Notes under the pieces: generated by a model | Databases searched by the model: none | What the model saw: only the letters and a program-made list of their open reading frames with translations | What the model was told of the DNA's origin: nothing | Program-made: the position numbers and the translations under genes | Part shown: in pieces, positions 909-49,670 of the stretch | How the letters are laid out: each line of letters opens with the position of its first letter | How positions within the stretch are numbered: the first letter of the stretch is position 1 | Source: Naegleria gruberi | Taxonomy: Eukaryota | Reading direction: 5' to 3' (one strand) | Length of the DNA stretch: 64,000 nt | NCBI GenBank assembly: GCA_000004985.1 | Contig: GG738917.1

Positions 909-2262
909 ATGATGCAACAACACCAACCTCAAGATTCCTTCGGATCAACTTTTGATTTTAGCACAGACAAGGGAAGCTATTCAATTCCAAAGCAAGCCTT
1001 GATCCAATATGTTGAAAAGGCTTTCTTACAAGAGAAAAAGTCCTTCTTGTTGCTTCCAATTCCTTCCTCTCAGGATTTTATTCCCTTCTCCGTGATGGAA
1101 CAAATTGCAAAGGAATCAGAGAGTGTTAGAAAACAAATGGAAATTGTTCTTCAAACTGTGCCAGAGCAGAATGATAGCTTGAGTGATTTTCACTATACTT
1201 TTGGATCATTACCAGATGAACCAAGTGTATCCTATGAAAGTGATCCGAATGCCTATGTTCAAGATTTGGCATTGTTGACCAATGATACACCTGGATTATT
1301 TGTCAATGATATTGATGGTGGAAAATTCCACTTTGTTTCACAACGTCATTATGATGCAGTTGGTGACTTTGTGTGTAAATATGTACAGGAAGAACTTTTG
1401 GTTAAGAGATGTAAATTAGATGAATATTGGTTGCCATTGGATATGAATGCACAAACTCAAAAAGATCAAATGGTTAATATCTTCATGTCAAAGGATGCAT
1501 TGACAAATCCAAACAAACTTATGCTTCTTATACAGGGATCAGGTGCTGTTCGTCCAGGACAATGGGCTAGAGGTATGTCTTTAATTTATTGAATTATTTG
1601 TAATCATTTGGAAAATAACTTGAATTAATACATTGTGTGAAATAGCTCTCTGTATGAATGACACACTCAAGACTGGTACTCAATACAATTATATTGTACA
1701 AGCTATGAAGGAAGGATATGGAGTGATTGTTTTCAATCCAAATCAAAACCATTACGTTCCAAAGGAGTTGGATGATCCAACCAAGTACAACAAGACAGGA
1801 TACATGAATAGAAACAAACCAGAACCATTGCCAAAGAATGTCAAAAAGTCCATTCCACACAATCAATCCCCACCTGAACATACAGTCTATGTGTGGGATC
1901 ATTTCGTTAAGAAGGCAGCAGCTAAGGATGTTGTAATTGTTGCTCACTCTGCTGGAGGTTGGTGCACTATGGAATTATTGAAGGAGAGAACACAGGAATG
2001 CTTGAATAGAGTTAGAGCTATTGCTTTTACTGATTCAGTTCACTCAGTTAATTCATCTGATCCAAAACCTGTTCGTGATTTTGTGGTTGCCAATGCTGTC
2101 AATTGGGTTACCTCTGAAAAGCAATGTGATGTTCTCGTTTCACCAAAGAGACAGGGATCATCATGTGAATGCAGAAGTGCTGGTCACAATAAGCATGAAT
2201 ATACCTCAGAGTTTTGTCGTGAAGCTGCCTTCTCATATATCAATGCTAAATTGGCTCAATAA
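909..2262 (+). CDS. Arb2/FAM172-like alpha/beta-hydrolase-fold protein, 2 exons (909..1572, 1646..2262)
   Basis: Two consecutive ORFs joined by a 73-nt intron (GTATGT donor at 1573, TAG acceptor ending 1645, phase 1 conserved). It has a GxSxG-like motif (AHSAGGW) typical of the FAM172/Arb2 family. Start ATG checked. Confidence 0.45.
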
Positions 2263-3529: not shown

Positions 3530-5701
3530 TTATTTTACTTGCTTTGCTGTAATTAATTCAACAATCATCTTATTACTTGGAGAATCAATCTTGAATTTGT
3601 TAGCCAACTCTACAAATGCTCCATTGAGATACATAATTTCAGTTTCGTTTTGATTTTCCAAGTCCACTAACATGCTACAACGATTTGAACTAGTCAACTC
3701 ACAAATTTTCATTACCTTTTCATAAACTACTTGCTCAATAGACTTGTCTTTCATTTCTTGAGCTGTAGCCAATGAATCTATTGCTCCAGGAATCATTCTT
3801 AAAATATTGACTTGTTCCTTAATTAGAATTTTCATCAAATTTTGTAAGGCGAGATTTTGTAATAAATTTCCATTTTCAATTTGGTAGAGGGAGGCAAGCG
3901 GATTGATGGTGGAATTGATAATAAGTTTCATCCAATCAACAAACTTTGGTTTTCCATCAATTATTGTCGAATTCAGTATTGAGCCAATTTGGAATTGTGA
4001 ATTATTGGAAAATACATTTCCTAATTTGGTGTCTACAAGTAGTTTTGGAACGCTAATTGATATTTTGTCAGTGTTCGATTGCTCCAATACTCTTCTATCT
4101 TCACTATTAAGAATTGTCTTGACTCCTGAGTATAAATTGATTGGTGACATTGAAACGCCTTCCAAGTTGAGTTTTGAAAGAGAGGTCAAGATATTTTGCT
4201 CATTTCCATATCCATTCTGAACAGTTATAATATGCTTAATCTTTGATAAAGATGGAAGTCCTTCCATCATGTTCTGAATTGCTTGATTAGTGGCATAACT
4301 CTTGACAGCTATAATCAAGACATCAATTTCACCATTCCAAGCATTCTTCAATTCTTCATCACTTATAATATTTACAATAGTATTTCTAATTGATTTAGTT
4401 TCATTTCCTTCCCTTACTTGTGTGGAAATTTCAATATTTTCTTCAAGTTTCGTCTTTTTTCCACTCAGCAATTTCACATCACAATTACTTGATAAACTAG
4501 AAGCAAACAATGAACCAACAGATCCTGAACCAAGAATTAATACCTTTGGTCTTTCGCCTACATTATTATAATCTACACCCAATTGTCCATCTTTCTTTCC
4601 ATCAACATTTGACTTGATTATCTCATTAACTTGATGATTTTTCACATCTTTTTCAATATATTCCGAAACTACACTATATACATCATCCTTAATAATAAAA
4701 GTATGTGATTTGTGTGGAAATTCTCCATTCACAACATCTTTCACATAATTTTCACAAGCATCAATCATGATTGGATTCAAATTCAAATATTGTTTACAAA
4801 ACTTTGGAGTAAACTTTGAATACATTCCCAATAAATCATGATAAACCAACACCTGACCTGAACATTTACCAGATCCAATACCAATTGTTGGAATTCCAAT
4901 GTGTTTCGTAATGAGAGAGGCTAATTTCTGAGGAACGCATTCCAGTACAATTAAGCTAGCTCCAGCTTCCTTAACTGCCAATGCATCTTTCCATAATTGG
5001 ATAGCTTCTGAGCAGTTCTTTGAACCAACCACTCTGAAACCTCCCAATTGATTGCATGATTGTGGGGTTAGGCCAATATGTGCAATGACAACTATTCCAG
5101 CATCGACAATTGACTTGATTTTTGAGGCAACTCTTTCACCTCCTTCAAGTTTGACAGAATTCATTTCTGCTTCCTTAATAAACCTAACAGCATTGTGAAC
5201 TGCAGCGTCATCTGTGACATAGGAACCAAATGGCATGTCACCGATCAAGAATGAATATTGACTTCCTCTCTTGACAGCTTTAGCATGATGAATCATTTCG
5301 TCCATCGTAACGCTAGTTGTGTTTGGTTGACCTAAGGCAGTCATTGACAAGGAATCACCCACCAATATCATATCACAATTTGTTTGGTCAACCACAGAAG
5401 CAGAATGAAAATCAGTTGCTGTGAGCATTGTCAAGGGAATTTGATTTTGATACTTGTAATTGATGCATTGCAAAGTGACAGGTACTAATTCTTGCCTTAT
5501 AGATTCTTTCTCTTGTGAGGATGCCTTATTACTCTTTGGACTTGTGTGCACTGAATAGTTTCGAATAGTCTTCTTTCCATTTATGGTAGACGAAACCCAA
5601 CTCTTTCTTGTGGACTGAACAAGATTCAGCAACGAGAGGACGTCATCCCTTCCCAAACTCTTCCTTACAAGACCACCACCTATTTTTGTAATCATCTTCA
5701 T
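3530..5701 (-). CDS. bifunctional ketopantoate hydroxymethyltransferase (PanB) / ketopantoate reductase (PanE, ApbA) fusion protein
   Basis: The N-terminal half carries the PanB signature MLTATDxxSA...LVGDSLSMTALGQPNTT..VTMDEMIHHAKAV..GDMPFGSY. The C-terminal half carries the PanE Rossmann motif VLILGSGSVGSLF and the C-terminal motif SSMLVDLENQNETEIMYLNGAFV. It is a single uninterrupted ORF. The track start is TTG; the first ATG is at 5701, and the N-terminus looks like a targeting presequence. Confidence 0.8.
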   Translation of the reverse strand: MKMITKIGGGLVRKSLGRDDVLSLLNLVQSTRKSWVSSTINGKKTIRNYSVHTSPKSNKASSQEKESIRQELVPVTLQCINYKYQNQIPLTMLTATDFHSASVVDQTNCDMILVGDSLSMTALGQPNTTSVTMDEMIHHAKAVKRGSQYSFLIGDMPFGSYVTDDAAVHNAVRFIKEAEMNSVKLEGGERVASKIKSIVDAGIVVIAHIGLTPQSCNQLGGFRVVGSKNCSEAIQLWKDALAVKEAGASLIVLECVPQKLASLITKHIGIPTIGIGSGKCSGQVLVYHDLLGMYSKFTPKFCKQYLNLNPIMIDACENYVKDVVNGEFPHKSHTFIIKDDVYSVVSEYIEKDVKNHQVNEIIKSNVDGKKDGQLGVDYNNVGERPKVLILGSGSVGSLFASSLSSNCDVKLLSGKKTKLEENIEISTQVREGNETKSIRNTIVNIISDEELKNAWNGEIDVLIIAVKSYATNQAIQNMMEGLPSLSKIKHIITVQNGYGNEQNILTSLSKLNLEGVSMSPINLYSGVKTILNSEDRRVLEQSNTDKISISVPKLLVDTKLGNVFSNNSQFQIGSILNSTIIDGKPKFVDWMKLIINSTINPLASLYQIENGNLLQNLALQNLMKILIKEQVNILRMIPGAIDSLATAQEMKDKSIEQVVYEKVMKICELTSSNRCSMLVDLENQNETEIMYLNGAFVELANKFKIDSPSNKMIVELITAKQVK

Positions 5702-6245
5702 TTTCTCAATTTTTTTCAATATTGTTTCGGTTGCTGAGAAGTCAAAGACGGAAATTTAAAAACCTTCGAGAGATTAAACTCAAATATCCAGCAACTGTTG
5801 TGAATGATAATAATAATTAACGTCCAACAACCCTCACAGATTGGATATTCTCCGTTAAATTGAAGATTGTTCATTATCACCAACATTTGACTCTAAAATT
5901 AATCTCTTCACTGTTCTTCAACCCTGATTGATATTTGGATCTCTTGCAAAGATTGATAATTTATTTCTTCTTCATGGTGTTGATGAGTTATGTTGTTCTT
6001 ATTTCCATTCTCCGATGGACAAAAAGTTGTTTTTCAGCACAAATATCTTGCACTGTAAATGACGAAGGTTCAAAATTGTAATTTCTTCATTCCTGGAATG
6101 TGTGATTGTAATGTTGAGGTCTGTTACGTATTATTTGAAATTTCCTTCAAATAATTATCCGATTAAGAGACAGTGATTGAGAACTTTAATTTCGCATCAT
6201 TCATTATTCGAAACACAAAAAAACAGTAAAAAAAAATAGAGAGTA

Positions 6246-7313
6246 ATGCAAGTGGCCAAATCATTGCACGAATTTCAAACACTCAGAAAATTATTGGGCA
6301 ATAATGGAAAGGTTGTGAGTTTTGTTCCCACGATGGGAAACCTCCACAGCGGTCATTTACAATTAATGAAAATTGCAAAACAAAACTCGGATGTGGTTGT
6401 AAGCTCTGTTTTTGTAAATCCTGCACAATTTGCAGCAAATGAAGATTTTGATAAGTATCCAAGGACTCTACAATCAGATTTGGAAAAGATGAAGGAAATT
6501 GGTGTGGATTTAGTGTTGGCTCCAGGTGGAACTTCAGAGCTGTATCCACATGGATACATGACACGTGTCTTTATGAGTAAGATATCGACGGATACAGCTC
6601 AGTCACATCCATTGAGGAATAGTTCTGGATCTGTTGGGGAGGAATTGAATCATAATTGGTTGGAGGATCAACCAGAAGCTATTTGTAGAAGTGGTTTCTT
6701 TGATGGAGTTTCTACCATTTTAGTGAAATTGTTTAATATTGTAAGACCACAGGTTATTGTGTTTGGACAGAAAGATGCAGTTCAATGTATGGTTGTAAAG
6801 AGATTGGTTAAGGATTTGAATTATATTGATATTGAAAAGGTGATTATTGGAGAAACTGAAAGAGAATTGGACGGATTGGCCATGTCATCTAGAAATCAAT
6901 ATCTTTCTCCAATTGATAGGAAATATATTGCACCAATTTTGAATAGGATATTATTTGATGCTCAATCATCTTTTAAGAATATTGAAAATGTAAATGCTGA
7001 ATCATTGAGAAAGTGGCTGCAAGATTCATATAATCAATTGGAATTTTCATTTGAGGAAAAGTTGAAAAATCACTATTCGAATGGGTATAATAAGGAAGAT
7101 TACAAGATTGACTATTTGAGTGTGTGTAATTGGAACAATGGTCATGTTTATGGAACCATCTCTACAAATAATATTTATACAGAACCATTTTACAGTATTG
7201 AGAAGGAGAATTTACAAGATTTGACACAGCTCTGTTTATCCACAACTGTCCGAGTTGGAGGAACTCGTTTGTTGGATAATTTAATTATCAATGTTAGGGA
7301 AAATGGGATTTAA
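6246..7313 (+). CDS. panC: pantoate--beta-alanine ligase (pantothenate synthetase, PanC)
   Basis: It has the HIGH-type nucleotidyltransferase motif VPTMGNLHSGHLQLM and panC-like blocks (SVFVNPAQF, VFGQKD, MSSRN) over its whole length. Start ATG verified. It is about 70 aa longer than bacterial PanC because of internal insertions. Confidence 0.85.
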   Translation: MQVAKSLHEFQTLRKLLGNNGKVVSFVPTMGNLHSGHLQLMKIAKQNSDVVVSSVFVNPAQFAANEDFDKYPRTLQSDLEKMKEIGVDLVLAPGGTSELYPHGYMTRVFMSKISTDTAQSHPLRNSSGSVGEELNHNWLEDQPEAICRSGFFDGVSTILVKLFNIVRPQVIVFGQKDAVQCMVVKRLVKDLNYIDIEKVIIGETERELDGLAMSSRNQYLSPIDRKYIAPILNRILFDAQSSFKNIENVNAESLRKWLQDSYNQLEFSFEEKLKNHYSNGYNKEDYKIDYLSVCNWNNGHVYGTISTNNIYTEPFYSIEKENLQDLTQLCLSTTVRVGGTRLLDNLIINVRENGI

Positions 7314-7432
7314 TTGTTGCTGATCTGGTGTGTTTCTCTGATCTTAACCCAATTCATTAATTTCTTATGGAATTTTACCAATGTTGAAATTGATTTAATA
7401 AAATTTAAAAACTACTTGGAATACTGATTTAT

Positions 7433-9508
7433 TTATTCTAAAATATATCCAATAATCGAGAAAATAATAAATAATAATGTGTAAAAAAAGATAGCTTTTG
7501 AGCGCTTTGAACGTTTGTGTGGTTCATCTTTGAGTTCAGGAGTAGAGCAGAATAGTTCCAACATTTTAGAGCTATCCAGTGGATCCTGAGAAAAGTATAA
7601 ATTCCAAATATCTTTGGCTTGTTTCTTGAGGAAATGTTGATTTAACAAGTGATCATTTCTTCCTGTGATAGTCAAGGAAGGAATTCTATATAATTGTTCC
7701 TTAATATTTCTGAAAACGCTATCTCTACACATTTTGGTAGCTTCAGTTTCCTTGAATTCTTCCTCCAAGAAATATGAATAGGCATTGAGTTGACTCATAA
7801 TCTTTTCTTGATCCTCAATATTCTGAATGGTGGCTAATCTTTGGGATCTGTCATGATACAATTTTTTGATACTATCTTGATCAGATGGTTCTTTGTAAAA
7901 GTATTTGAGGAAAACTTTCTCATTTCTAATTGTCATTTCCATAATCTTATCAATAACGAACATCTCCTCTTTGTTGAATTCTATTTCAGAGAAAGAGTCG
8001 TCATCAATGTGATACCTTATTGCTTTGGTTAATTGAATAAACAAGTCTACAACATTCTCAATGCTCATAGTATCGAGTTGGAAACTCTCCTTAATTGAGA
8101 ACTTGGCAAAATCTTCTGATCCTTTTGCAAACTGAAGACAGAAATAGGTACGATCCTCTGCGAAAACCTTGGAGTATGTCATAGTATTCAAGTCCAATCT
8201 ACCAGAGCTGATCAAATCTGCGTTCTTCGATCTGATTTCAATATTGTACAATTGTGCACGGATTTCAAAGAATTTCAAATCAATTTTGAACAAATCCTTG
8301 AAAATATTTCTCAAACCGTCCATAGTCTCTGTTGTTGAGAGTTTTCTGATTGGATCATCCAAAAATGTCTTTCTCAAATATGGAAGATCTGATACAGAAA
8401 GATTAGAATCTCCTAATTCTCGTTGTAATTCCAATAAAGAATCATTTAAAACTATTCTAAAATCAGAAACATCATTTCTATTCATCAAATCATAAAAGTT
8501 GTCATATTTACATTCTTTTGCAAGTGCCTTTTGTGAAGCCAACAAAGATTCAACTTTCTTTTCAATGCCTGATGATAAACTGGTCATTTGAATAGAGTAA
8601 GAAATTCTCCTAACCTCCATGTTTTCATCAAATAATCCCTTAGAAAGATCAAAATACAAATTTCCATGACGTTCGTGTAAAACATGTGCTTGTTGCAACA
8701 TTTCCACCTCACCATTAGTAATTAAAGTTCCAATATAATTATTAGGAATCGAGATTGGCTTCATGTTTTCCAGTTGAAAACGTACAAACTCAGTTCTGAA
8801 TTCTTCTTCTGCTCTTTCTAGTGCCGACCAAAACCATGACTTTTTACTAAATTGGAACCAATCACAACGACTGAGAAGAAAATTAATATTCTTTGTATCC
8901 TTTGTGTCCAATCCCTCGATTCTTTCCTTGATTTTGATAACAAGTTCTGGTAGTAAATGTACATTCAACAAGGAAACAATCTTATTAAACTTTAAAGTAT
9001 AATCCTGTTTGGCACTATTCTCCAATTCATAAATATTCATACTAATCAATTCCAAAATATTCAAACAAATTGATGCAAATTCCTCCTTCTTAATATTTCC
9101 ACTATTACTACCCTCGACAATCTCCCTCAACAAACCAATCAAATCATTCACACTATCAATTTTATACTTTGTATAAATTGCAAGAAATGAAAAATCGATA
9201 CTCGACAAATCTCCTTCAATATAACGTTTAGGAATTTTAAATCCTTTATAATCTATTACTTCATCTCCTTGTTGCTTTACCAAATCTTTAGGTAAATATT
9301 GTTCAACAACAAGCTTTCCTATTGATGGTTTTAAATATCTAATTGTATTACTAGTATTAATAATACTATGATCCGAAGAATAACGTAACTTGGCAAAGGC
9401 TCGTTCTTGATATTGTTGTATTATTGGTATCAACTTGGCTTGATGTTTTCTTTGTGCATTCAATGAAATTTGATGTAACAATGACGAAGGAGGCTTAAAG
9501 GAAAACAT
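7433..9508 (-). CDS. hypothetical tail-anchored protein (C-terminal TM helix)
   Basis: 691-aa open frame with ATG verified. The only feature is a C-terminal hydrophobic helix (AIFFYTLLFIIFSIIGYIL). No confident family assignment. Confidence 0.35.
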   Translation of the reverse strand: MFSFKPPSSLLHQISLNAQRKHQAKLIPIIQQYQERAFAKLRYSSDHSIINTSNTIRYLKPSIGKLVVEQYLPKDLVKQQGDEVIDYKGFKIPKRYIEGDLSSIDFSFLAIYTKYKIDSVNDLIGLLREIVEGSNSGNIKKEEFASICLNILELISMNIYELENSAKQDYTLKFNKIVSLLNVHLLPELVIKIKERIEGLDTKDTKNINFLLSRCDWFQFSKKSWFWSALERAEEEFRTEFVRFQLENMKPISIPNNYIGTLITNGEVEMLQQAHVLHERHGNLYFDLSKGLFDENMEVRRISYSIQMTSLSSGIEKKVESLLASQKALAKECKYDNFYDLMNRNDVSDFRIVLNDSLLELQRELGDSNLSVSDLPYLRKTFLDDPIRKLSTTETMDGLRNIFKDLFKIDLKFFEIRAQLYNIEIRSKNADLISSGRLDLNTMTYSKVFAEDRTYFCLQFAKGSEDFAKFSIKESFQLDTMSIENVVDLFIQLTKAIRYHIDDDSFSEIEFNKEEMFVIDKIMEMTIRNEKVFLKYFYKEPSDQDSIKKLYHDRSQRLATIQNIEDQEKIMSQLNAYSYFLEEEFKETEATKMCRDSVFRNIKEQLYRIPSLTITGRNDHLLNQHFLKKQAKDIWNLYFSQDPLDSSKMLELFCSTPELKDEPHKRSKRSKAIFFYTLLFIIFSIIGYILE

Positions 9509-9849
9509 TTTTTTTTAAATTATTATAATTATGAATGGCTATACTTCTTATTCGCCAACAGGTTTATCTGTATTGAGTTTTGATTTTGATGAATCTTCAT
9601 TCAATAATAATTTATCAAATCATTTCCCCAATATGAAACAATTTCAATTTCAAATTTATTGATGGAAATCAAGCAGAATCAATTCTCACTCAAAATACTA
9701 GCTTTTGAACATGCATGTTGGTTCCAACACTGATAAGTTGAATATGAATACCAGAAGAATTCGAAATAAATTATCACCACATCTTTCAACCTTACATTGA
9801 TTGTTACTGCCCTCCAATAAGCCAAAAAAATTCAAACCCTTAAAAAAAT

Positions 9850-11061
9850 ATGTATGAGCGAAATAAAGCAATGCTTATGCAAATGTTTCAAACAGAGGAA
9901 CAATACACGCAAGTAATCAATCTTCTAGATATCTTTGAAAAGTGGAGTTTGATTGATTTTTCAACTGTCGAAACTATGAGAAAGACGTTTGAAGAAGTGG
10001 ACAAGGACGAAGAGTTTATATTTGATGTTGTTTCAACGAATTGGAAGGTATTTAATCAATGCAAAGACATTCCGATTTCTAAGGATCAATTCATGACCTT
10101 GTCTACCAAGCCTACGAGAATTGCTAGTCTAAGTTGCTTTGGTCGAAAAGGTTGGGAAAGATTATTCAAACAAATTCGAAGATTGAATCCACCTGTTAAG
10201 AAAGAAAACCTTGGATCATTGCAAGCTGATACAATTATAGAAGAAACTAAAGATGAATCATTGACTGATGTTAAACCACCAAAAGAAGAAACATCTTCTT
10301 CAACACAAATATATCAGGCTGGCCCTCATGTAATTAATTACACCCATTCCGACAAAGAAGAAGAAATTTCAGCAGGTGAGCTTCATGAAACAAGGCATAA
10401 TAGAAAATACATTGCCAATTACTTCAAGAAAGAAATGGAGATCTTTTTAGCGAAAAAGATGAGAGGAATGTTAGAGATTTTTCAAGACGAAATTAAGGAT
10501 GATTTAGGTAAGGTCGCCAACAACATTGGCACTTCGTATGAACTGGTCTTTACCCAACATTTAAAAGACAATCATCCAAACTACAAGTTAAACTGTGGTT
10601 ATGGTATGGCTGTCGATTTTACCAAGATCAAAAAACAAGAAAGAGAAAATTGGGAAAAGTTTATGAAAATAATGGTAACAAAGAACTTCCTTACCGAGAA
10701 TGAAATAACATTGTTATCATTAGACACAAACGAAGTAGAATTCAACTTCTTGATGGAAGATACGGTTGCTAATTTTAAAATAATTGATGCCAGTATTTCT
10801 TTATTTCAAAAACAGGCTCAACTATTGAAAAACTTAATACAAATAGAAAGGAAATTGATGGCCTTTAATTTAACAAAAGGATGTGCTTATTTGAAGGAGG
10901 TTTGGTTGTATTCTCCAACCGAGGTCAATATTTCTAGATTGGAAACATGTTGTAAAATAGCAAAACAACATGGATTTACTTTGAAACATGTTGAATCCCA
11001 TGTCAGAGCCAGAACATTTAATACTTCGAAGTATAGAAATAAGATATTGATGGACAATTGA
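9850..11061 (+). CDS. hypothetical protein
   Basis: 403-aa ORF with ATG verified and coding-like composition. No recognisable domain. Confidence 0.3.
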   Translation: MYERNKAMLMQMFQTEEQYTQVINLLDIFEKWSLIDFSTVETMRKTFEEVDKDEEFIFDVVSTNWKVFNQCKDIPISKDQFMTLSTKPTRIASLSCFGRKGWERLFKQIRRLNPPVKKENLGSLQADTIIEETKDESLTDVKPPKEETSSSTQIYQAGPHVINYTHSDKEEEISAGELHETRHNRKYIANYFKKEMEIFLAKKMRGMLEIFQDEIKDDLGKVANNIGTSYELVFTQHLKDNHPNYKLNCGYGMAVDFTKIKKQERENWEKFMKIMVTKNFLTENEITLLSLDTNEVEFNFLMEDTVANFKIIDASISLFQKQAQLLKNLIQIERKLMAFNLTKGCAYLKEVWLYSPTEVNISRLETCCKIAKQHGFTLKHVESHVRARTFNTSKYRNKILMDN

Positions 11062-11141: not shown

Positions 11142-11215
11142 GCCGTCATAGCTCAGTTGGATAGAGCACAGGACTTCTAATCCTGGGGTCGTGGGTTCGA
11201 GCCCCATTGTCGGTA
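11142..11215 (+). tRNA. tRNA-Arg (anticodon TCT)
   Basis: Cloverleaf parsed by hand. D-arm is GCTCAGTTGGATAGAGC, anticodon arm is CAGGA-CTTCTAA-TCCTG (anticodon TCT), and the T-arm GTGGGTTCGAGCCCCAT contains the B box. The acceptor stem has one U-U mismatch. It closely resembles eukaryotic tRNA-Arg(UCU). Confidence 0.8.
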
Positions 11216-15114: not shown

Positions 15115-18100
15115 ATGGACTTTGACGACGAATTAGAGTATCAATTTGCTGATACTACTACTGAAGCGAACGATGACGAAGAAGAAGAGAAGGATTTTGA
15201 AAATCTTCAGGATGACTTTAGAGAAGGAGCTAGTGAAGAGCAAATTAGTGAAGAGGAATTACACTTTCAACAAAATATCAAACCACACATTTTAGATACA
15301 ATACGGTTATTGACCAGTTTTATTATTTTCAAAGATGATGAGGAATTATCTTTCGAAGAGAATACTGAAGTCTATGCTGCTAAAAGGAAGGCTTGTATCG
15401 AATCGTTGCAAGACTTACAAGAAATTACAAAGGAGGATTTGACTAAAAGAGAGAGAAGAGTTTGGACACTTTTAATAGAGACAAATATTCACAAGAATGA
15501 ACTCTTTTCACTGCTGTCACACCACAGAAATGACTATGACATTGTGAGAGAGGTAATTGATTTGTTAGTAATTTTGAGTGAGTCTCCAGATCAAAACAAT
15601 CCGAGATTTAGAAAGTTCTCTGCTAGAGGAGGTGCTTCCGAAAGAAAGAGAGCTATTTTCTACTTTGGAAAACAAATGAAAATATTGCAAAGATTCAAAC
15701 AAGCTTTACTGTCGACTAAATACCTTCCAATCATTAGTTGGACATTAATGAATAAGGAAAATGAATCTGCACTCAAATCAAAAATGATAATAGATGAGGA
15801 AAATAAGAGGAGAGTACTTACAGAAGCTGACCTCTACTTTATTGCTATTTTCAAATTGTTAAATAACTTATTATCTATACCAGATGCCAAACATGGCAAA
15901 GTTTTACAAACTGAAGAACTCCAAACAAGAATGCAAGATGTTTTGGTCAAACAATTGCAAAATGACTGTCAATTTTTAGATTACGCTCTCGTTAAAATGA
16001 CCAAATTTATTGAGAACTATAACGAAGTATCGTCGCAATCTGAAATGAAGAGACTCTCAGAATCTTATTTACTTTTTACAAAGTTTGCTACCATGCTTTT
16101 TTGGAATGAATCTGTGAAGGATTTATTTGAAGCATCAAATCCAATAATTCCAAACAGTAATGATATAGTCATGTCACAGAATGAGGAAAATATGGAAATG
16201 GATAACAGTGAGCTGAAAAGATTGCTAAGAAAGGAGAAAATGTACAAGGATCAAGTTAAGTCTTTGATTCTCACAGGCAGACACTCTCGCTTCCAAGGCA
16301 GTCTTTTAGAAAGAGAATCAAATGTCAGTAAGGTTATTAGTAAGAACAAGGATGCTCAAAAGCTCAGTGCACTATTAGAAGAAAATGAAGAATATGATGC
16401 AGAAAAAGAAAATAAGAAGAATGATGTAAAGATACAAAAAACCTTTGTTGTGCAAAATGTAACTCACATGAATACGGCACACATGTATGCAGCTAGTGAC
16501 AATCCATTCCTTGTTGGAGGCGGACAACAAAAAGCCTCGAGTACTGGTGCTAGATTTGGTACCAAGAGATTTAATGTCATGTCAGACAAGATGGAATTGA
16601 GATTTTCTCCATCCTCTCTCGAAACTAGAAAGATCATTAAGAACTTTGCAGATGATTTGTATAGAGGCTGTTTCAATAGTAAGTTTTCTTTAAATATTTA
16701 AAGGTCTTATCCAATAATAATAATATAGCATTGATTCAACTTACTTTGCAAACTATCATCAAACAACAGGAGGATTCCATTGCCATCAACAATGAACTGG
16801 ATCAAAAATCTACTAAGGAAGCACTTGATCATGAAAGCGAAAGAAACTTTTTATTCTTAGGTCAATTCATGCTAGGTTATAACAGATACAAGTACCTGCA
16901 AAAGAAGAAGAGAGAAGAGCAAAGATCAAGTGGAGAAACTGTTGGTTTCGATATTGCTCTTATTTCTACCTTGTTGAAAGAAGGTGTTGTTTCTATGATA
17001 TTCAAGAAGTTGTTGAGTGATTACTTTTACACACAAAATACTTTTAATCTTACATTTGTAATTGGTTTCTTGAGGGAATTGTTTACAACTTTTAGATGGA
17101 TGGGTGATAAGAACTACAGTGGATCTGATGCATCAACATGGGGTAGAATTGTTTCTATTCACTTGCATCACATTCTCTATGACCCAACAAATATGGAGAG
17201 TCTTGTAAGATTAGTGAGAGAGTACAAACCATATCAAAATTCTATCAAGTACCTTTCTCATTTAGTTTTGTTGGTTGACTTGTTTATTACAGTCATTAAT
17301 GAAAATATAAGCATTGAAGCATTCTTTATGAAGTCTAAGAAAGGAGAATCCTCAACCACAGAAGATGAAGAAGAAGAGGAAGAGAACGATTCTGCCAAGC
17401 AAAAGAGATTCGAATTGGATGGTTTTAGAAGAAGATTTGCCAATCCTTCTGTTCTCAAACAGTACATGTATCTTTTCAGGTTTTATGATGTCAATCCTCC
17501 AGAAGTCAACCAATCCATTATCCAAATATTCAAGTACATTATTGAAGAATTGGATATGGAATTCATGATGTTCAGAGCATCATTCTTGAAGCTTTGTTTC
17601 AATATTCTTTCCAACAAGACGTTTATCCATGATTCATTGGGCTCATTTGAAAGAAAGGTCAATGAAGAGGTGATTGACTTTGTTCTATCAATAGTAAAGA
17701 ACTTCTTCAAGAGAGTCGATGAAGATCCATTCACTGTATGTGAAACTTTGCACTGGAGTACAATGGGCGAAGTCAGCTTGCTCAACCACGCTGATTTTGG
17801 TAGATCAGCAACTGAAGGAAGAGCATCAAGACCTGCAGAAGCTGATGATCTTGATGATTTCATCCAAGGTGAGGAAGAAGAGGAAGATGCCTTAGAAGCA
17901 ATTAGAAGAGATGAGGCCAGAGGAGTTGATGAAGAAGAAGAGCTTCCACAAGAAGAAAAGAAGAAGAAGGACAAGAAGAAGAATAAGAAAAAGAAAGACA
18001 AGAAGAAAGATGAAACAGAAGAAAACCAAGCTGAAGAAGGAACAGAAGAAAACCAAGAAGTTAAAAAGAAGAAGAAAGATAAGAAGAAGGATAAGAAGAA

Positions 18101-18407
18101 AAAGGATAAAAAGAAATCCAAAAAGAGAAAGGAAAGAGACGAAGAAGAAACTGAGGAAACTGAAGATACTGAGAGAAGTGAAAAGAAGAAGAAAAAGAAG
18201 AAAAAGAAGGAAAAACAACAACAGGAAGAATCTCTTCAAGAGGAAGAGGAACCACAAGTTGAAGAAGAAATGGCTGATGAAGAGGATCGTCTCTTACTTT
18301 CCAGTGATGATAGTGATGATGAAAAGAGTAGAGGAAGACTGAAGAAAGTTACACAAAAAAGAGTCTTACCAAATTCATTCTTAAATCTCGATTTTGAGGA
18401 TGAATAA
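15115..18407 (+). CDS. Timeless/Tof1/Swi1-family replication-fork-protection protein, 2 exons (15115..16678, 16729..18407), with a long Lys/Glu-rich C-terminal tail
   Basis: Two ORFs joined by a 50-nt intron (GTAAGT ... TATAG) in phase 1. Blocks resemble TIMELESS, for example LTGRHSRFQGSLL versus human RGNRHSRFGGSYI. The gene has an acidic N-terminus and an acidic/basic C-terminal tail ending DDSDDE. Confidence 0.5.
17905..18300 (+). repeat. coding low-complexity (AAG/GAA)n tract encoding a poly-Lys/Glu tail
   Basis: Purine-rich trinucleotide repeats inside the Timeless-like CDS. They generate spurious overlapping ORFs on both strands. Confidence 0.7.
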
Positions 18408-18426
18408 ATTACAAAATTTGTAAAAT

Positions 18427-20103
18427 TTATGGAGAGCTTTGAATACGATTGACAATGGCTGAAACAAGGGCAGAATTATGAACCTCTGCGCCAATACCCA
18501 ATGACTCTCTATCCTTCAAAATGCAACCACTCTTCTTAATACACAAACCAATAGCTGTTTCCAAGATGGTTCCAGTAGATCTCAAAGAATAGCATGGAGC
18601 AACCTTTTGACAACCATAGTAAAAGTATCTGGTAGCACAAGCAGAGAATATTGCGTTACCTCTAATATCTTGTAAACAATCCAATTGACAGGCAACACAT
18701 GGAGTGTTATCAACACCAGCAAAGGAAGCTCTGTCAGGCATTGGATAATCTGATGGACCAGTAACGTGGAATGAGCTAGGAGCAGAAGAAACCAAACCCT
18801 TTGCAGTGGAAGATAAAGAATTCTTAACTTCGTTGGTAGTTTTCTTTTCTCCTTCACTGGCCTTTTCTTTCAATTCCTTTTTAACTTCTGCAATCTTGGC
18901 AAGTGTGAATTCAGCTTTCAAACCATACTTTTTGTTCTTTAAAGTATTGAAAGCTTTCTTATTGAGAGATTTCAATCCTCTTCCCTTACCACCTTTCTTT
19001 CCTCTTCTGCCACCTCTTCTTCCACCTCTTTTACCACCTTTACCTCTTCTTCCACCCTTTCCTTTACCTCTTTTACCACCTTTTCCACCTCTTCTTCCAC
19101 CTTTGCCTCCTTTCTTTCCACCTTTACCTTTTCCACCTTTTCCTTTACCTCCTTTACCTTTTCCACCTTTTCCACCTTTTCCACCTTTTCCTTTACCTCC
19201 TTTTCCTTTTCCACCTTTACCTCCTTTTCCACCTTTGCCTCCCTTTCTTCCAGAATTTCCACCTTTCTTTCCACCATTTGATTTTCCTCCTCTTTTACCT
19301 CCTTTGGCTCCAACAGAATTTCCACCACCTCTTTTACCACCTTTTCCTCCTCTACCTTGTTGTTTTGATGTGGAACGAGCTGTACGACCACCACTGAGAG
19401 CTCCTCTCTTTCCAGATGGTTTACCACCAGTAGCACCAGCACCAGCACGTGAAGCAGATTTTCCACCTCTTTTACCACCAACACCACGTGAAGCAGATTT
19501 TCCAACAGATCCAGAAGTAGCACCAGTACCAGTACCAGCACCACCACGTGAAGCTCCTTTTCCACCTCCTCTTTTACCACCTCCTCCAGAAGAAGTAGCA
19601 CCACCACGAGATACTGAACCACTTCCTCTTCCAACAGAACTTCTTCCACTACTACCACCACTACTAGCACCTCCTCTTGAACCAGCTGATGATGATGAAG
19701 ATGATCTTCCACCACCACTACTACTAGCTCCTCCACCTCTAGAACCTCCTCCAGAAGATGATCCACCACCTCCTCTGGAACCTCCTCCAGAAGATGCTCC
19801 ACCACCTCGTGATCCACCTCCACCACCAGAAGATGATCCACCACCACCTCTTGAACCTCCACCGCCTCCACCACGTCCTAAAGTGTTGATGTTATCCTCA
19901 ATTAATTCTACATCTTCATCTTCATCAGAAGACAATGTAGCAGCAGCTACTACAACGGTACGTTTTTTTCCTGATGAACTGGTCTTGGCAGGTCCACGAC
20001 ATTGACTTGCTGTGGCATTGACACTTTCACATAGTAAAAAACATTGTATGCTGATAATTGCCAGAATAGCGAAAAGTAAAAGACGAATATTCCACTGTGG
20101 CAT
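18427..20103 (-). CDS. secreted basic Gly/Arg/Lys-repeat protein with conserved C-terminal 8-Cys domain (paralog A)
   Basis: ATG verified. A signal peptide is followed by the motif ATASQCRGP, an acidic stretch, (G3-4[RS])n repeats and GKGGKGGKG-type repeats. A C-terminal domain of about 115 aa has the pattern C-x2-C-x3-C...C...YFYYGCQKVAPCY...C...GC and is shared with the genes at 22143 and 30906. Confidence 0.6.
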   Translation of the reverse strand: MPQWNIRLLLFAILAIISIQCFLLCESVNATASQCRGPAKTSSSGKKRTVVVAAATLSSDEDEDVELIEDNINTLGRGGGGGGSRGGGGSSSGGGGGSRGGGASSGGGSRGGGGSSSGGGSRGGGASSSGGGRSSSSSSAGSRGGASSGGSSGRSSVGRGSGSVSRGGATSSGGGGKRGGGKGASRGGAGTGTGATSGSVGKSASRGVGGKRGGKSASRAGAGATGGKPSGKRGALSGGRTARSTSKQQGRGGKGGKRGGGNSVGAKGGKRGGKSNGGKKGGNSGRKGGKGGKGGKGGKGKGGKGKGGKGGKGGKGKGGKGKGGKGKGGKKGGKGGRRGGKGGKRGKGKGGRRGKGGKRGGRRGGRRGKKGGKGRGLKSLNKKAFNTLKNKKYGLKAEFTLAKIAEVKKELKEKASEGEKKTTNEVKNSLSSTAKGLVSSAPSSFHVTGPSDYPMPDRASFAGVDNTPCVACQLDCLQDIRGNAIFSACATRYFYYGCQKVAPCYSLRSTGTILETAIGLCIKKSGCILKDRESLGIGAEVHNSALVSAIVNRIQSSP

Positions 20104-48935: not shown

Positions 48936-49016
48936 AGCAGGGGTTCCCGAGTGGTCAAAGGGGGTAGACTCAAGTTCTACTGCGCAAGCTTCGTGGGTTC
49001 AAATCCCACCTTCTGC
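48936..49016 (+). tRNA. tRNA-Leu (anticodon CAA), class II with long variable arm
   Basis: Sequence is GCAGGGGTTCCCGAGTGGTCAAAGGGGGTAGACTCAAGTTCTAC-[variable arm]-GTGGGTTCAAATCCCACCTTCTGCA. Anticodon stem is GTAGA/TCTAC, loop is CTCAAGT (anticodon CAA), and there is a B box GGTTCAAATCC. It closely matches eukaryotic tRNA-Leu(CAA). Confidence 0.8.
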
Positions 49017-49670
49017 AGATTTTGCTTCTTTCTCCCTTAGTCTTTTTGAATAGACCACTATTTGCAAATATTTATTGTTAGTCCGACGTCTAGTTTCTAT
49101 GGTAAAAACTTTGTTCAATTTCATAAAGACTCTATAAAGATAATCAATAAAGATAACACTGACCTCAAATATTCCAGCCTAAACAATTTGAAAAATACCA
49201 TGCACAAAAAAGAAGAAAGACTACAAATTTGGCAAAGTGAAGGAAAAAGACTACAGCACCACAGGTTCCCAAGTTGTCTCCAACCTCAGTACTGATGTGG
49301 CTCGACGATAAATCGGACGGGATGAGGTGCATTCATCGTGATATGGCCGTAGCCATTCAATTGTTGAAAATTTGAAAAATAAATCAAATTCAAGCATGTT
49401 CTTGATAACAGGAAATATTGATATTTGTTGAGATTTATCATTTCACCACTAACAAATCAAATTGGAAAATTTAATTGTACTAATTTTTTATGGAATATTT
49501 TAAACTAGCTCATAAAAAAATGATGTTAAAACTGAGGCTTCTAAAAACGGATGTACAAATAGTTTTTAAAAAATAAAAACACAATTACCAAGATAGATAT
49601 CCAAACCATCACTACAAGAAAATAAATTGTGTGAAAATAAATGATCTTAGAAAAAATCATAAAATGTTAT

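Follow-up and report, generated by a model that had tools for sequence, protein, structure and literature searches.

Why does the nuclear genome of Naegleria gruberi carry three consecutive steps of pantothenate (vitamin B5) synthesis in two neighbouring genes of opposite orientation, one of them a fusion? A sequence-only reading of the window (the whole 64-kb stretch of DNA analysed) had pointed to a PanB-PanE fusion gene head-to-head with panC, and had raised horizontal acquisition, co-regulation and substrate channelling as possible reasons. Our analysis indicates that panBE and panC are very probably two ordinary, vertically inherited nuclear genes whose products cover the three steps leading from alpha-ketoisovalerate to pantothenate, with a fusion that bears a putative presequence and is probably mitochondrial, a PanC that is presumably cytosolic, and a linkage that has been retained. 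The features of the locus are:

3530..5701, minus strand: panBE CDS, 723-aa bifunctional ketopantoate hydroxymethyltransferase / ketopantoate reductase (ORF, Pfam and NCBIfam)
5480..5701, minus strand: N-terminal extension, residues 1-74, putative mitochondrial presequence
4697..5479, minus strand: PanB (KPHMT) domain, residues 75-335 (PF02548, solved structures, catalytic residues)
4547..4696, minus strand: inter-domain linker, residues 336-385, without family match
3533..4546, minus strand: PanE (KPR) domain, residues 386-723 (PF02558, PF08546, TIGR00745, solved structures)
5702..6245, no strand: divergent intergenic region of 544 bp, presumed promoter(s) and 5' UTRs of panBE and panC
6246..7313, plus strand: panC CDS, 355-aa pantoate-beta-alanine ligase (ORF, PF02569, TIGR00018, solved PanC structures)

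Two genes for three pantothenate enzymes

The minus-strand ORF spans 3530..5719, and its first ATG, at 5701, opens an intron-free frame of 723 codons that closes with the stop codon at 3530-3532. According to the ORF list, no stop or frameshift, which the earlier reading had named as grounds for rejecting the fusion, falls between the PanB and PanE halves. The product is identical to the annotated N. gruberi protein P0001 (100% identity across 100% of the length). In the AlphaFold model, two confident domains are joined by a low-confidence linker, with a long helix at residues 339-367 and a low-confidence segment at 361-375; an alignment of 16 fusion proteins revealed that linker sequence and length differ between them.

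The PanB half matched Pantoate_transf (PF02548) over residues 75-330 (E = 4.6e-101, 338 bits versus a cutoff of 28.7; profile positions 2-258 of 259) as well as TIGR00222 panB (297.9 bits versus 207.55). It resembles the solved KPHMT structures 3ez4, 3vav, 1oy0 and 1m3u (E = 1e-53 to 1e-60), and the model gives it a pLDDT of about 88-96. For E. coli KPHMT, we take D45, S46, D84, K112, E114, H136 and E181 of the published structure to be the metal-binding and catalytic residues. These align pairwise to D116, S117, D155, K184, E186, H208 and E254, all of which are conserved and invariant in the 16 fusion proteins.

In the PanE half, a Rossmann N-domain (PF02558 ApbA, residues 387-508, E = 1.5e-16, 60.8 bits versus a cutoff of 22.2) and a helical C-domain (PF08546 ApbA_C, residues 590-721, E = 8.1e-29, 101 bits versus 22.7) flank a lineage-specific insertion. 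TIGR00745 apbA_panE was passed marginally (144.5 bits versus 141.35), and the domain resembles the solved KPR structures 5hws, 5ayv, 3ego and 1ks9. Both the NADPH-binding GxGxxG motif (G391-S-G393-S-V-G396) and K467, N496, K592, N596, S676, D680 and E688 are conserved in the E. coli alignment and in the 16 fusion proteins. K467, N496, K592, N596, S676 and E688 are the counterparts of K72, N98, K176, N180, S244 and E256, the catalytic or substrate residues of the published E. coli KPR structures. The in-frame fusion with intact catalytic motifs proposed earlier is thus borne out by a single ORF, by family matches of each half and by the conservation of every residue checked. The ApbA/PanE superfamily includes reductases acting on other 2-oxo acids. 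Because of this breadth, ketopantoate specificity is suggested by the covalent fusion to PanB together with the conserved active site (K592, E688 and N496).

The plus-strand gene was correctly called panC. Its product is 100% identical to the annotated N. gruberi protein P0121, gives a full-length family match (PF02569 Pantoate_ligase, E = 1.8e-74; TIGR00018 panC, 228.1 bits versus a cutoff of 212.75) and matches solved PanC structures. The nucleotide-binding motifs HxGH (H34-S-G-H37) and SSRN (S214-S215-R216-N217), the pantoate-binding glutamines Q61 and Q180, and K176 and D177 are conserved relative to E. coli, from which the protein differs by clade-specific insertions of about 25 residues near 120-144 and about 30-40 residues near 290-320.

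A putative presequence on the fusion protein

Residues 1-74 of panBE have no counterpart in E. coli PanB. In line with the presequence-like N-terminus noted before, this extension is basic (14 K+R versus 5 D+E) and ends in [YF]SVH in 14 of 14 Naegleria-clade members, 8 of which have R at -3. The motif R47-N-Y49|S50-V-H suggests cleavage after Y49 (nucleotide 5555). The AlphaFold model leaves the extension disordered (pLDDT <50), with one helix predicted at residues 18-37. From these features we infer a putative mitochondrial presequence. PanC lacks an N-terminal extension, its first residues aligning with the start of the E. coli enzyme.

Such a presequence would probably send the fusion to the mitochondrion, where the PanB domain would convert alpha-ketoisovalerate and methylene-tetrahydrofolate to ketopantoate and the PanE domain would reduce ketopantoate with NADPH to pantoate. 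Pantoate would then exit the organelle, and PanC, presumably cytosolic, would join it to beta-alanine using ATP. The enzyme activities, the compartments and any co-regulation of panBE and panC are what we infer for the living cell. Substrate channelling through all three steps, as had been suggested, is unlikely because the targeting-like extension is present on the fusion and absent from PanC.

An old and widespread fusion

The sequence-only reading held that the fusion is not a standard architecture, with fungi and plants as its frame of reference; the organism is a heterolobosean, and the claim did not survive comparison. Among the best 120 database relatives, PanB-PanE was the commonest architecture (64 proteins), next to 13 PanB-PanE-PanC, 13 PanB-PanC and 30 PanB proteins. 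PanB precedes PanE in all 77 fused relatives examined, and the triple fusions run PanB-PanE-PanC. Carriers include N. fowleri, Acrasis kona, dictyostelids, Planoprotostelium, Arcella and Balamuthia, as well as Capsaspora, Thecamonas and Perkinsus, so that fused relatives span Heterolobosea, Amoebozoa and the last three genera. Two papers describe a bifunctional PanB-PanE in Toxoplasma, other coccidia and Perkinsus (PMC8717973, PMC8764084) and a trifunctional PanB-PanE-PanC ORF in Chromera and Vitrella (PMC8717973). Among eukaryotes the fusion is thus both old and widespread and no Naegleria novelty, dating back at least to the ancestor shared by Naegleria and Acrasis. The finding is correct but ordinary: P0001 and P0121 were already annotated, and the bifunctional KPHMT-KPR is documented.

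We built rough, bootstrapped neighbour-joining (NJ) trees for PanB, PanE and PanC separately, the phylogenies that had been called for, and in each of them the N. gruberi sequence fell inside eukaryotic, heterolobosean clades. In the PanB tree, N. gruberi grouped with N. fowleri (100% bootstrap), then with 10-12 metagenomic fused sequences (72-79%) and with the Acrasis group (85%); the same nested groups were recovered for PanE (97-100%). For PanC, the three Naegleria species (100%) were joined by 7 metagenomic sequences (100%). Deep nodes were unsupported (bootstraps 1-20%), and these trees therefore do not decide whether the fusion arose once or how it relates to bacteria. In the same poorly supported eukaryotic group as the Naegleria PanB lie stand-alone plant and fungal PanB proteins.

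There is next to no chance that an artefact of assembly or sequencing has joined two separate genes into the fusion. Nothing specific speaks for it, although a frameshift in one metagenomic relative (L008) illustrates that sequencing errors can alter apparent architecture; the same unbroken architecture recurs in the genomes of three Naegleria species and in over 70 independent proteins of the database, and the trees of the two halves are congruent. It is very unlikely that Naegleria recently acquired a bacterial pan operon horizontally and that its genes then fused. The pantothenate genes do encode bacterial-type enzymes in an operon-like cluster, and bacterial PanB proteins are up to 55% identical. 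However, PanB, PanE and PanC all have their nearest relatives among eukaryotes, which share the fusion, none of the 20 bacterial loci whose match covered both halves contained a fused ORF, and bacterial-sized PanE relatives scored no better than about 1e-20. Composition is native (GC of panBE and panC 0.33-0.35 versus a window mean of 0.34, and equal to that of the flanks), orthologues have introns (one of 74 nt in the N. fowleri orthologue), and the fusion bears what looks like a eukaryote-type targeting extension. The horizontal acquisition proposed earlier is thus not indicated as a recent event; an ancient bacterial operon origin of the pan genes is compatible with the data.

Linkage of panBE and panC

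The head-to-head layout was confirmed, with panC starting 544 bp from panBE on the opposite strand. The same arrangement occurs in N. fowleri (spacer 498 bp) and N. lovaniensis (516 bp), all three spacers lying below the 1 kb that bounds a bidirectional-promoter gene pair. Only panBE and panC, among the 42 ORFs of at least 150 aa in the window, matched the N. fowleri and N. lovaniensis loci; both flanking adjacencies are broken and every flanking gene differs. In N. gruberi, the neighbours are unrelated to the pathway pair (an HlyIII-family protein, a 691-aa protein without family match, a kinase and Timeless). The N. gruberi genome reportedly holds about 15,700 genes, so that two given genes would adjoin with a chance of about 2 in 15,700 (~1e-4). 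Together with the HMM E-values and the recurrence in two other Naegleria species, this shows that the adjacency is not due to chance. A eukaryotic metabolic gene cluster is usually defined by at least three non-homologous clustered genes of one pathway; here there are three activities but two genes only.

Beyond the genus, two related lineages have panBE and panC adjacent but tail-to-tail (convergent), and tandem or fused arrangements occur in other eukaryotes. Linkage was absent in Acrasis, two other lineages of the same clade, Dictyostelium, Capsaspora and Planoprotostelium, and selection for it is therefore not universal. Naegleria and the uncultured lineages nearest to it inherited the adjacency, and at least one inversion of one of the two genes took place, so that it is the linkage that has been preserved and not a particular shared promoter. 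The head-to-head pair of Naegleria, the tail-to-tail pairs of two related lineages and the bacterial operons of the same gene order form a mildly new comparison.

Within the spacer (5702-6245), no ORF of at least 60 aa was found, and comparison of the N. gruberi sequence with N. fowleri and N. lovaniensis yielded no significant conservation and no conserved motif that passed the empirical control. The sole block common to the three species is the A-rich ACAAAAAAA, about 10-40 nt upstream of the panC ATG, and the 8-mers shared between spacers were not in excess over other 544-bp segments of the window.

That one bidirectional promoter, as the sequence-only reading had proposed, drives both genes, co-regulates the whole pathway and keeps the pair head-to-head is a doubtful explanation. 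The two genes serve the same pathway, and a divergent layout, the genes lying about 500 bp apart, persists in three Naegleria species despite different flanking genes. Yet the spacer lacks significant conservation, it is the longest of the divergent spacers measured nearby (others 342 and 369 bp) and leaves room for two separate promoters, and the convergent pairs of the closest non-Naegleria relatives, as well as a tandem pair in another eukaryote, mean that linkage can be kept without a shared promoter. Alternatively, the adjacency could be a neutral leftover of ancestral linkage, from a bacterial-type panB-panE-panC operon or a split triple fusion, with a 0.5-kb spacer offering rearrangement a small target; this could well be so, if with a chance somewhat below even. 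Bacteria have adjacent panB and panE, in some cases one in-frame stop apart (L019, L020, L065), and some have panB-panE-panC operons ordered like the eukaryotic fusions (L027, L099, L108, L135). Eukaryotes display every intermediate (BC, BEC, and BE to which C is linked in any of three orientations), and several lineages have lost the linkage. But panBE-panC survived while both flanking adjacencies broke, it outlasted at least one inversion, and the trees do not tie the eukaryotic genes to bacteria with B-E-C operons, the nearest bacteria for PanB and PanC being two actinobacterial loci of C-B order (bootstraps 18-21%). We consider it improbable that the pair is a surviving operon-to-cluster-to-fusion intermediate, in which a bacterial-type panB-panE-panC block entered an early eukaryote, BE, BC and BEC fusions arose stepwise, and Heterolobosea held the linkage by selection for co-regulation through inversion and flank turnover. 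Retention of the linkage by vertical descent is the reading we prefer.

Comparison with other pantothenate systems

Yeast (ECM31, PAN5 and PAN6) and plants use the same pathway as Naegleria but have separate PanB, PanE and PanC genes that are not known to be fused or linked; in yeast and plants, PanB is mitochondrial and PanC cytosolic. Bacterial pan operons share the enzymes and the B-E(-C) order with Naegleria, but consist of separate ORFs in one direction without a presequence; their PanB is at most 55% identical and their PanE about 25%. We found panB-panE and panB-panE-panC strings in genomes of Chloroflexota, Desulfobacterota and Bacillota, E. coli having panB-panC. Where a single in-frame stop parts panB from panE, loss of that one codon would create the fusion.

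Closer in architecture are Toxoplasma gondii, other coccidia and Perkinsus, which, according to PMC8764084 and PMC8717973, likewise have PanB then PanE in one ORF and PanC as a separate gene; a Perkinsus protein (P0107) was a direct database match to panBE. The same papers place the Toxoplasma fusion in the mitochondrion and PanC outside it, which agrees with the putative presequence pattern of Naegleria. Identity to the Toxoplasma-type enzyme is just about 30%, and Toxoplasma PanC is, according to PMC8764084, much larger (88 kDa versus 355 aa in Naegleria). The comparison with Toxoplasma concerns the proteins; in Naegleria, the genes panBE and panC are adjacent and divergent. The trifunctional proteins (13 of the 120 best matches; Chromera and Vitrella in PMC8717973) combine the three activities in the same B-then-E order, and their PanC domains share a weakly supported eukaryotic group with Naegleria PanC (46% bootstrap). 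In Naegleria, by contrast, panC stands apart from panBE and is encoded on the other strand, so that without an inversion it cannot be a simple fission or fusion neighbour.

With Naegleria and its relatives, a linked-but-unfused state joins the range of physical coupling displayed by this pathway, which covers every degree from bacterial operon to trifunctional protein. The pan genes are thus a compact case study of pathway-gene fusion, of modest and comparative value. Humans do not have the pantothenate pathway. In formal terms this makes the N. fowleri orthologues specific to the parasite, an argument already put forward for Toxoplasma.

Gene content, active sites and neighbourhood

The two genes flank a 544-bp spacer (5702-6245) without any ORF of at least 60 aa in the mechanical ORF list, which also gave their extents:

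3530..5719, minus strand, first ATG at 5701: panBE, 723 residues uninterrupted
6246..7313, plus strand: panC, 355 residues

In family searches, residues 75-330 of the fusion protein matched the PanB family (PF02548 Pantoate_transf, E = 4.6e-101; TIGR00222, 297.9 bits versus a cutoff of 207.55). The PanE part comprised ApbA (PF02558, residues 387-508) and ApbA_C (PF08546, residues 590-721) and scored 144.5 bits with TIGR00745 (cutoff 141.35), while the panC product was assigned to PF02569 (E = 1.8e-74) and TIGR00018 (228.1 bits, cutoff 212.75). All three enzymes matched solved structures of the corresponding enzymes. For residue comparison, the E. coli genes were retrieved and aligned to N. gruberi PanB, PanE and PanC. 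Counterparts of the E. coli functional residues were found in PanB (D116, S117, D155, K184, E186, H208, E254), PanE (G391xG393xxG396, K467, N496, K592, N596, S676, E688) and PanC (H34-S-G-H37, Q61, K176, D177, Q180, S214-S215-R216-N217). In published E. coli structures these residues bind metal, cofactor or substrate; the majority of them are invariant in 16 diverse fusion proteins. An AlphaFold model of the fusion (mean pLDDT 78, pTM 0.51) is confident in two domains (about residues 71-335 and 386-723) and has low confidence over residues 1-70 and 361-375. Together, the ORFs, the family and structure matches, the conserved residues and the model show that the sequence-only reading described the genes, the in-frame fusion and the motifs accurately in every particular. 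The annotation holds, and the biology is coherent.

The fusion and PanC each match an annotated N. gruberi protein from end to end with 100% identity (P0001 and P0121 among the database relatives). This identity marks the window as nuclear DNA of a heterolobosean amoeboflagellate, so that fungi and plants, with which the genes had been compared, were the wrong frame. Two insertions, at roughly residues 110-145 and 285-325, distinguish the PanC proteins of Naegleria and of its uncultured relatives from those of bacteria, chytrids and oomycetes, which lack them; a conserved PLRN...WLExQPE block lies in the first.

The GC content of panBE and panC (0.33-0.35) equals the window mean (0.34). The surrounding genes are ordinary eukaryotic ones, namely an HlyIII-family membrane protein, an Arb2-domain gene, a kinase, Timeless and three tRNAs:

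909-1592 and 1654-2262, plus strand: ORF pair, first and second halves of Arb2 domain PF22749, probably a single gene with a ~60-nt intron
11142-11215: tRNA Arg-TCT
48937-49017: tRNA Leu-CAA
49671-49741: tRNA Asp-GTC

Local GC rises to 0.42, with strongly negative GC skew, in the patch 18001-20000, where a 558-aa ORF (18427-20103, minus strand) gave no Pfam match.

The PanB-PanE fusion is common in protists

The best 120 relatives of the fusion comprised 64 PanB-PanE, 13 PanB-PanE-PanC and 13 PanB-PanC proteins, and 30 with PanB but neither PanE nor PanC. In triple fusions the domain order was B-E-C (Pfam scan, n = 7). Named carriers comprise N. fowleri, Acrasis kona, five dictyostelid genera, Planoprotostelium, Arcella, Balamuthia, Capsaspora, Thecamonas, Perkinsus and an oribatid mite. 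Bifunctional KPHMT-KPR has been reported for Toxoplasma, where it is mitochondrial, other coccidia and Perkinsus, and a trifunctional ORF for Chromera and Vitrella (PMC8717973; PMC8764084). The search of other genomes that had been proposed earlier thus found the fusion to be widespread in protists, and the view that it is not a standard architecture has to be abandoned: both genes carry annotation already, and the architecture has been published. A literature search on pantothenate synthesis in Naegleria returned no relevant paper and none on these two genes.

The mite protein (P0048, Oppia nitens) is annotated as a 742-aa PanB-PanE fusion. Published work on mite pantothenate genes acquired via horizontal transfer covers panB and panC and does not discuss a fusion (PMC7738191). 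In two further relatives (P0087, P0090), PanB is joined to Rossmann-like domains (PF10727, PF10728, PF03807) and not to ApbA/PanE, which may represent an independent fusion to another reductase family. A metagenome scan for eukaryotic loci with linked or fused genes brought up bacterial operons for the most part, and L102 was the sole stop-free fusion. Since it missed the heterolobosean relatives, it provides no useful census.

Linkage of panBE with panC

The head-to-head arrangement recurs in N. fowleri (locus L001: panC 6354-7502, minus strand; panBE 8001-10357, plus strand) and in N. lovaniensis (L012: panBE 5141-7484, minus strand; panC 8001-9181, plus strand). In these two species, sequence up to 8 kb from the pair matched none of the remaining 40 ORFs (at least 150 aa) of the 64-kb window. 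In two uncultured relatives (L009; L010 with L011), which share ~42% identity in PanBE and ~48% in PanC, the genes are adjacent tail-to-tail, ~230 bp from stop to stop. An unrelated GC-rich eukaryotic contig (L006, L007) carries them in tandem, panC then panBE. At another locus, L008, gene calls give a tandem panBE-panC with a 33-bp gap; at 7830-7960, the PanE C-terminus continues in another frame and passes into PanC without a gap, and the locus is probably a B-E-C fusion that a frameshift error has broken in the 9x long-read assembly. No panC was found within 8-10 kb of panBE in Acrasis kona (L002), in two further Naegleria-clade lineages (L003, L178) or, as checked by tblastn, in Dictyostelium, Capsaspora and Planoprotostelium. 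Given head-to-head, tail-to-tail and tandem loci alongside unlinked lineages, gene order indicates that the linkage is recurrent, old in the Naegleria lineage, independent of orientation and not universal. We found no prior description of it.

One bidirectional promoter for both genes had been proposed, and the head-to-head order in three Naegleria species would allow it. The three spacers align poorly, and an alignment and shared k-mer analysis identified a single block common to them, an A-rich run immediately upstream of the panC start. Other divergent spacers in the neighbourhood are shorter (342 and 369 bp) than this one of 544 bp. A shared promoter is possible but not supported. Moreover, as the genes are convergent in sister lineages, a shared promoter would not be what keeps the pair together.

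In the 64-kb window the 8-mer ATTCTCCG has just two copies, both lying in the spacer (5847-5854 and 6007-6014), and the N. fowleri and N. lovaniensis loci have one copy each, likewise within the spacer (L001 7679; L012 7824). As a control, the remaining 544-bp segments of the window were all compared with the 8-mers conserved between these two species. Segments shared 1.5 such 8-mers on average, versus 2 in the spacer, so that ATTCTCCG was dropped as a conserved promoter motif and is not counted as evidence. A scan for sigma-70-type promoters and terminators was disregarded, the host being eukaryotic.

Gene trees, introns and bacterial parallels

Trees were built by neighbour-joining with our own script (Kimura-corrected distances, 100 bootstraps). 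For PanB, N. gruberi and N. fowleri grouped at 100%, were joined by 10-12 metagenomic fused proteins at 72-79% and, one step further outward, by a group that includes Acrasis kona at 85%. PanE nested in the same way (97-100%), which dates the joint inheritance of the two halves to the common ancestor of Naegleria and Acrasis or earlier. For PanC, three Naegleria species (100%) and seven metagenomic proteins (100%) formed a group placed weakly (46%) among PanC proteins of fungi and oomycetes and the PanC domains found in fusions. The heterolobosean clade is resolved, and deeper nodes are without support. All 77 fused PanB domains fell into a 104-member group that contained no bacterial reference-genome sequence and had a bootstrap of 1%; once 153 stand-alone PanE proteins were included, the PanE domains of the fusions did not group as a clade, support being nil. 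When the PanE half was searched against 1.84 billion cluster representatives, only six proteins matched at E <= 1e-30, all of them fused proteins or fragments thereof, and bacterial-sized PanE proteins first appeared at ~1e-20.

In N. fowleri, panBE has a 74-nt intron (L001 8601-8674) at the site that corresponds to N. gruberi residue 185/186. N. lovaniensis panBE has an intron of ~53 nt at the same position (L012, about 6832-6884). The site lies within the conserved KLEGG motif, and N. gruberi panBE is intronless. N. lovaniensis panC has a ~56-nt gap near residue 50.

Reference bacterial and archaeal genomes yielded 20 loci that matched both the PanB and the PanE half. Inspection of ORFs revealed adjacent separate genes throughout and not one true fusion. 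At three bacterial loci a single in-frame stop separates panB and panE, one mutation short of a eukaryote-type fusion: L019 (3849/3850), L020 (3825/3826) and L065 (3795/3796), from Caldilineales, Desulfarculus and Oscillospiraceae. Four bacterial loci (L027, L099, L108, L135) carry panB-panE-panC strings; their order is that of the eukaryotic fusions, whereas bacterial panB and panE stay separate ORFs.

These results divide the earlier suggestion of horizontal acquisition. A recent transfer from bacteria is ruled out by the trees, the PanE search, the native composition, the N. fowleri intron and the targeting-like extension described below. An ancient bacterial origin of the eukaryotic genes would be compatible with the data, and the bacterial panB-panE pairs and B-E-C strings may hint at it.

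A putative mitochondrial extension

Alignment revealed a 74-residue N-terminal extension on the fusion that is missing from E. coli PanB. It is basic (14 K+R versus 5 D+E), in line with the presequence-like N-terminus noted previously. In the Naegleria clade (P0001-P0014), [YF]-S-V-H closes the extension in 14 of 14 proteins, with Arg at -3 in eight; the remainder is unconserved and 28-88 residues long. Motif comparison located one site:

5555-5563, minus strand: R47-N-Y49 (then S50), putative processing site of the fusion

The pattern R-x-[YF]-S is that of an R-3 mitochondrial processing site. The [YF]-S-V-H end looks like a conserved site of this kind, which would suggest a mitochondrial fusion protein. 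PanC begins where the bacterial enzyme does and lacks such an extension. With an extension on the fusion and none on PanC, the likeliest layout would have a single mitochondrial polypeptide carry out steps 1 and 2, and step 3 take place in the cytosol, like that reported for Toxoplasma. Of the substrate channelling envisaged earlier, transfer between PanB and PanE is plausible; the extension argues against including PanC.

What remains new is the conserved, orientation-flexible linkage of panBE with panC and its parallel to bacterial B-E-C operons, a small comparative-genomics observation, short of a discovery.
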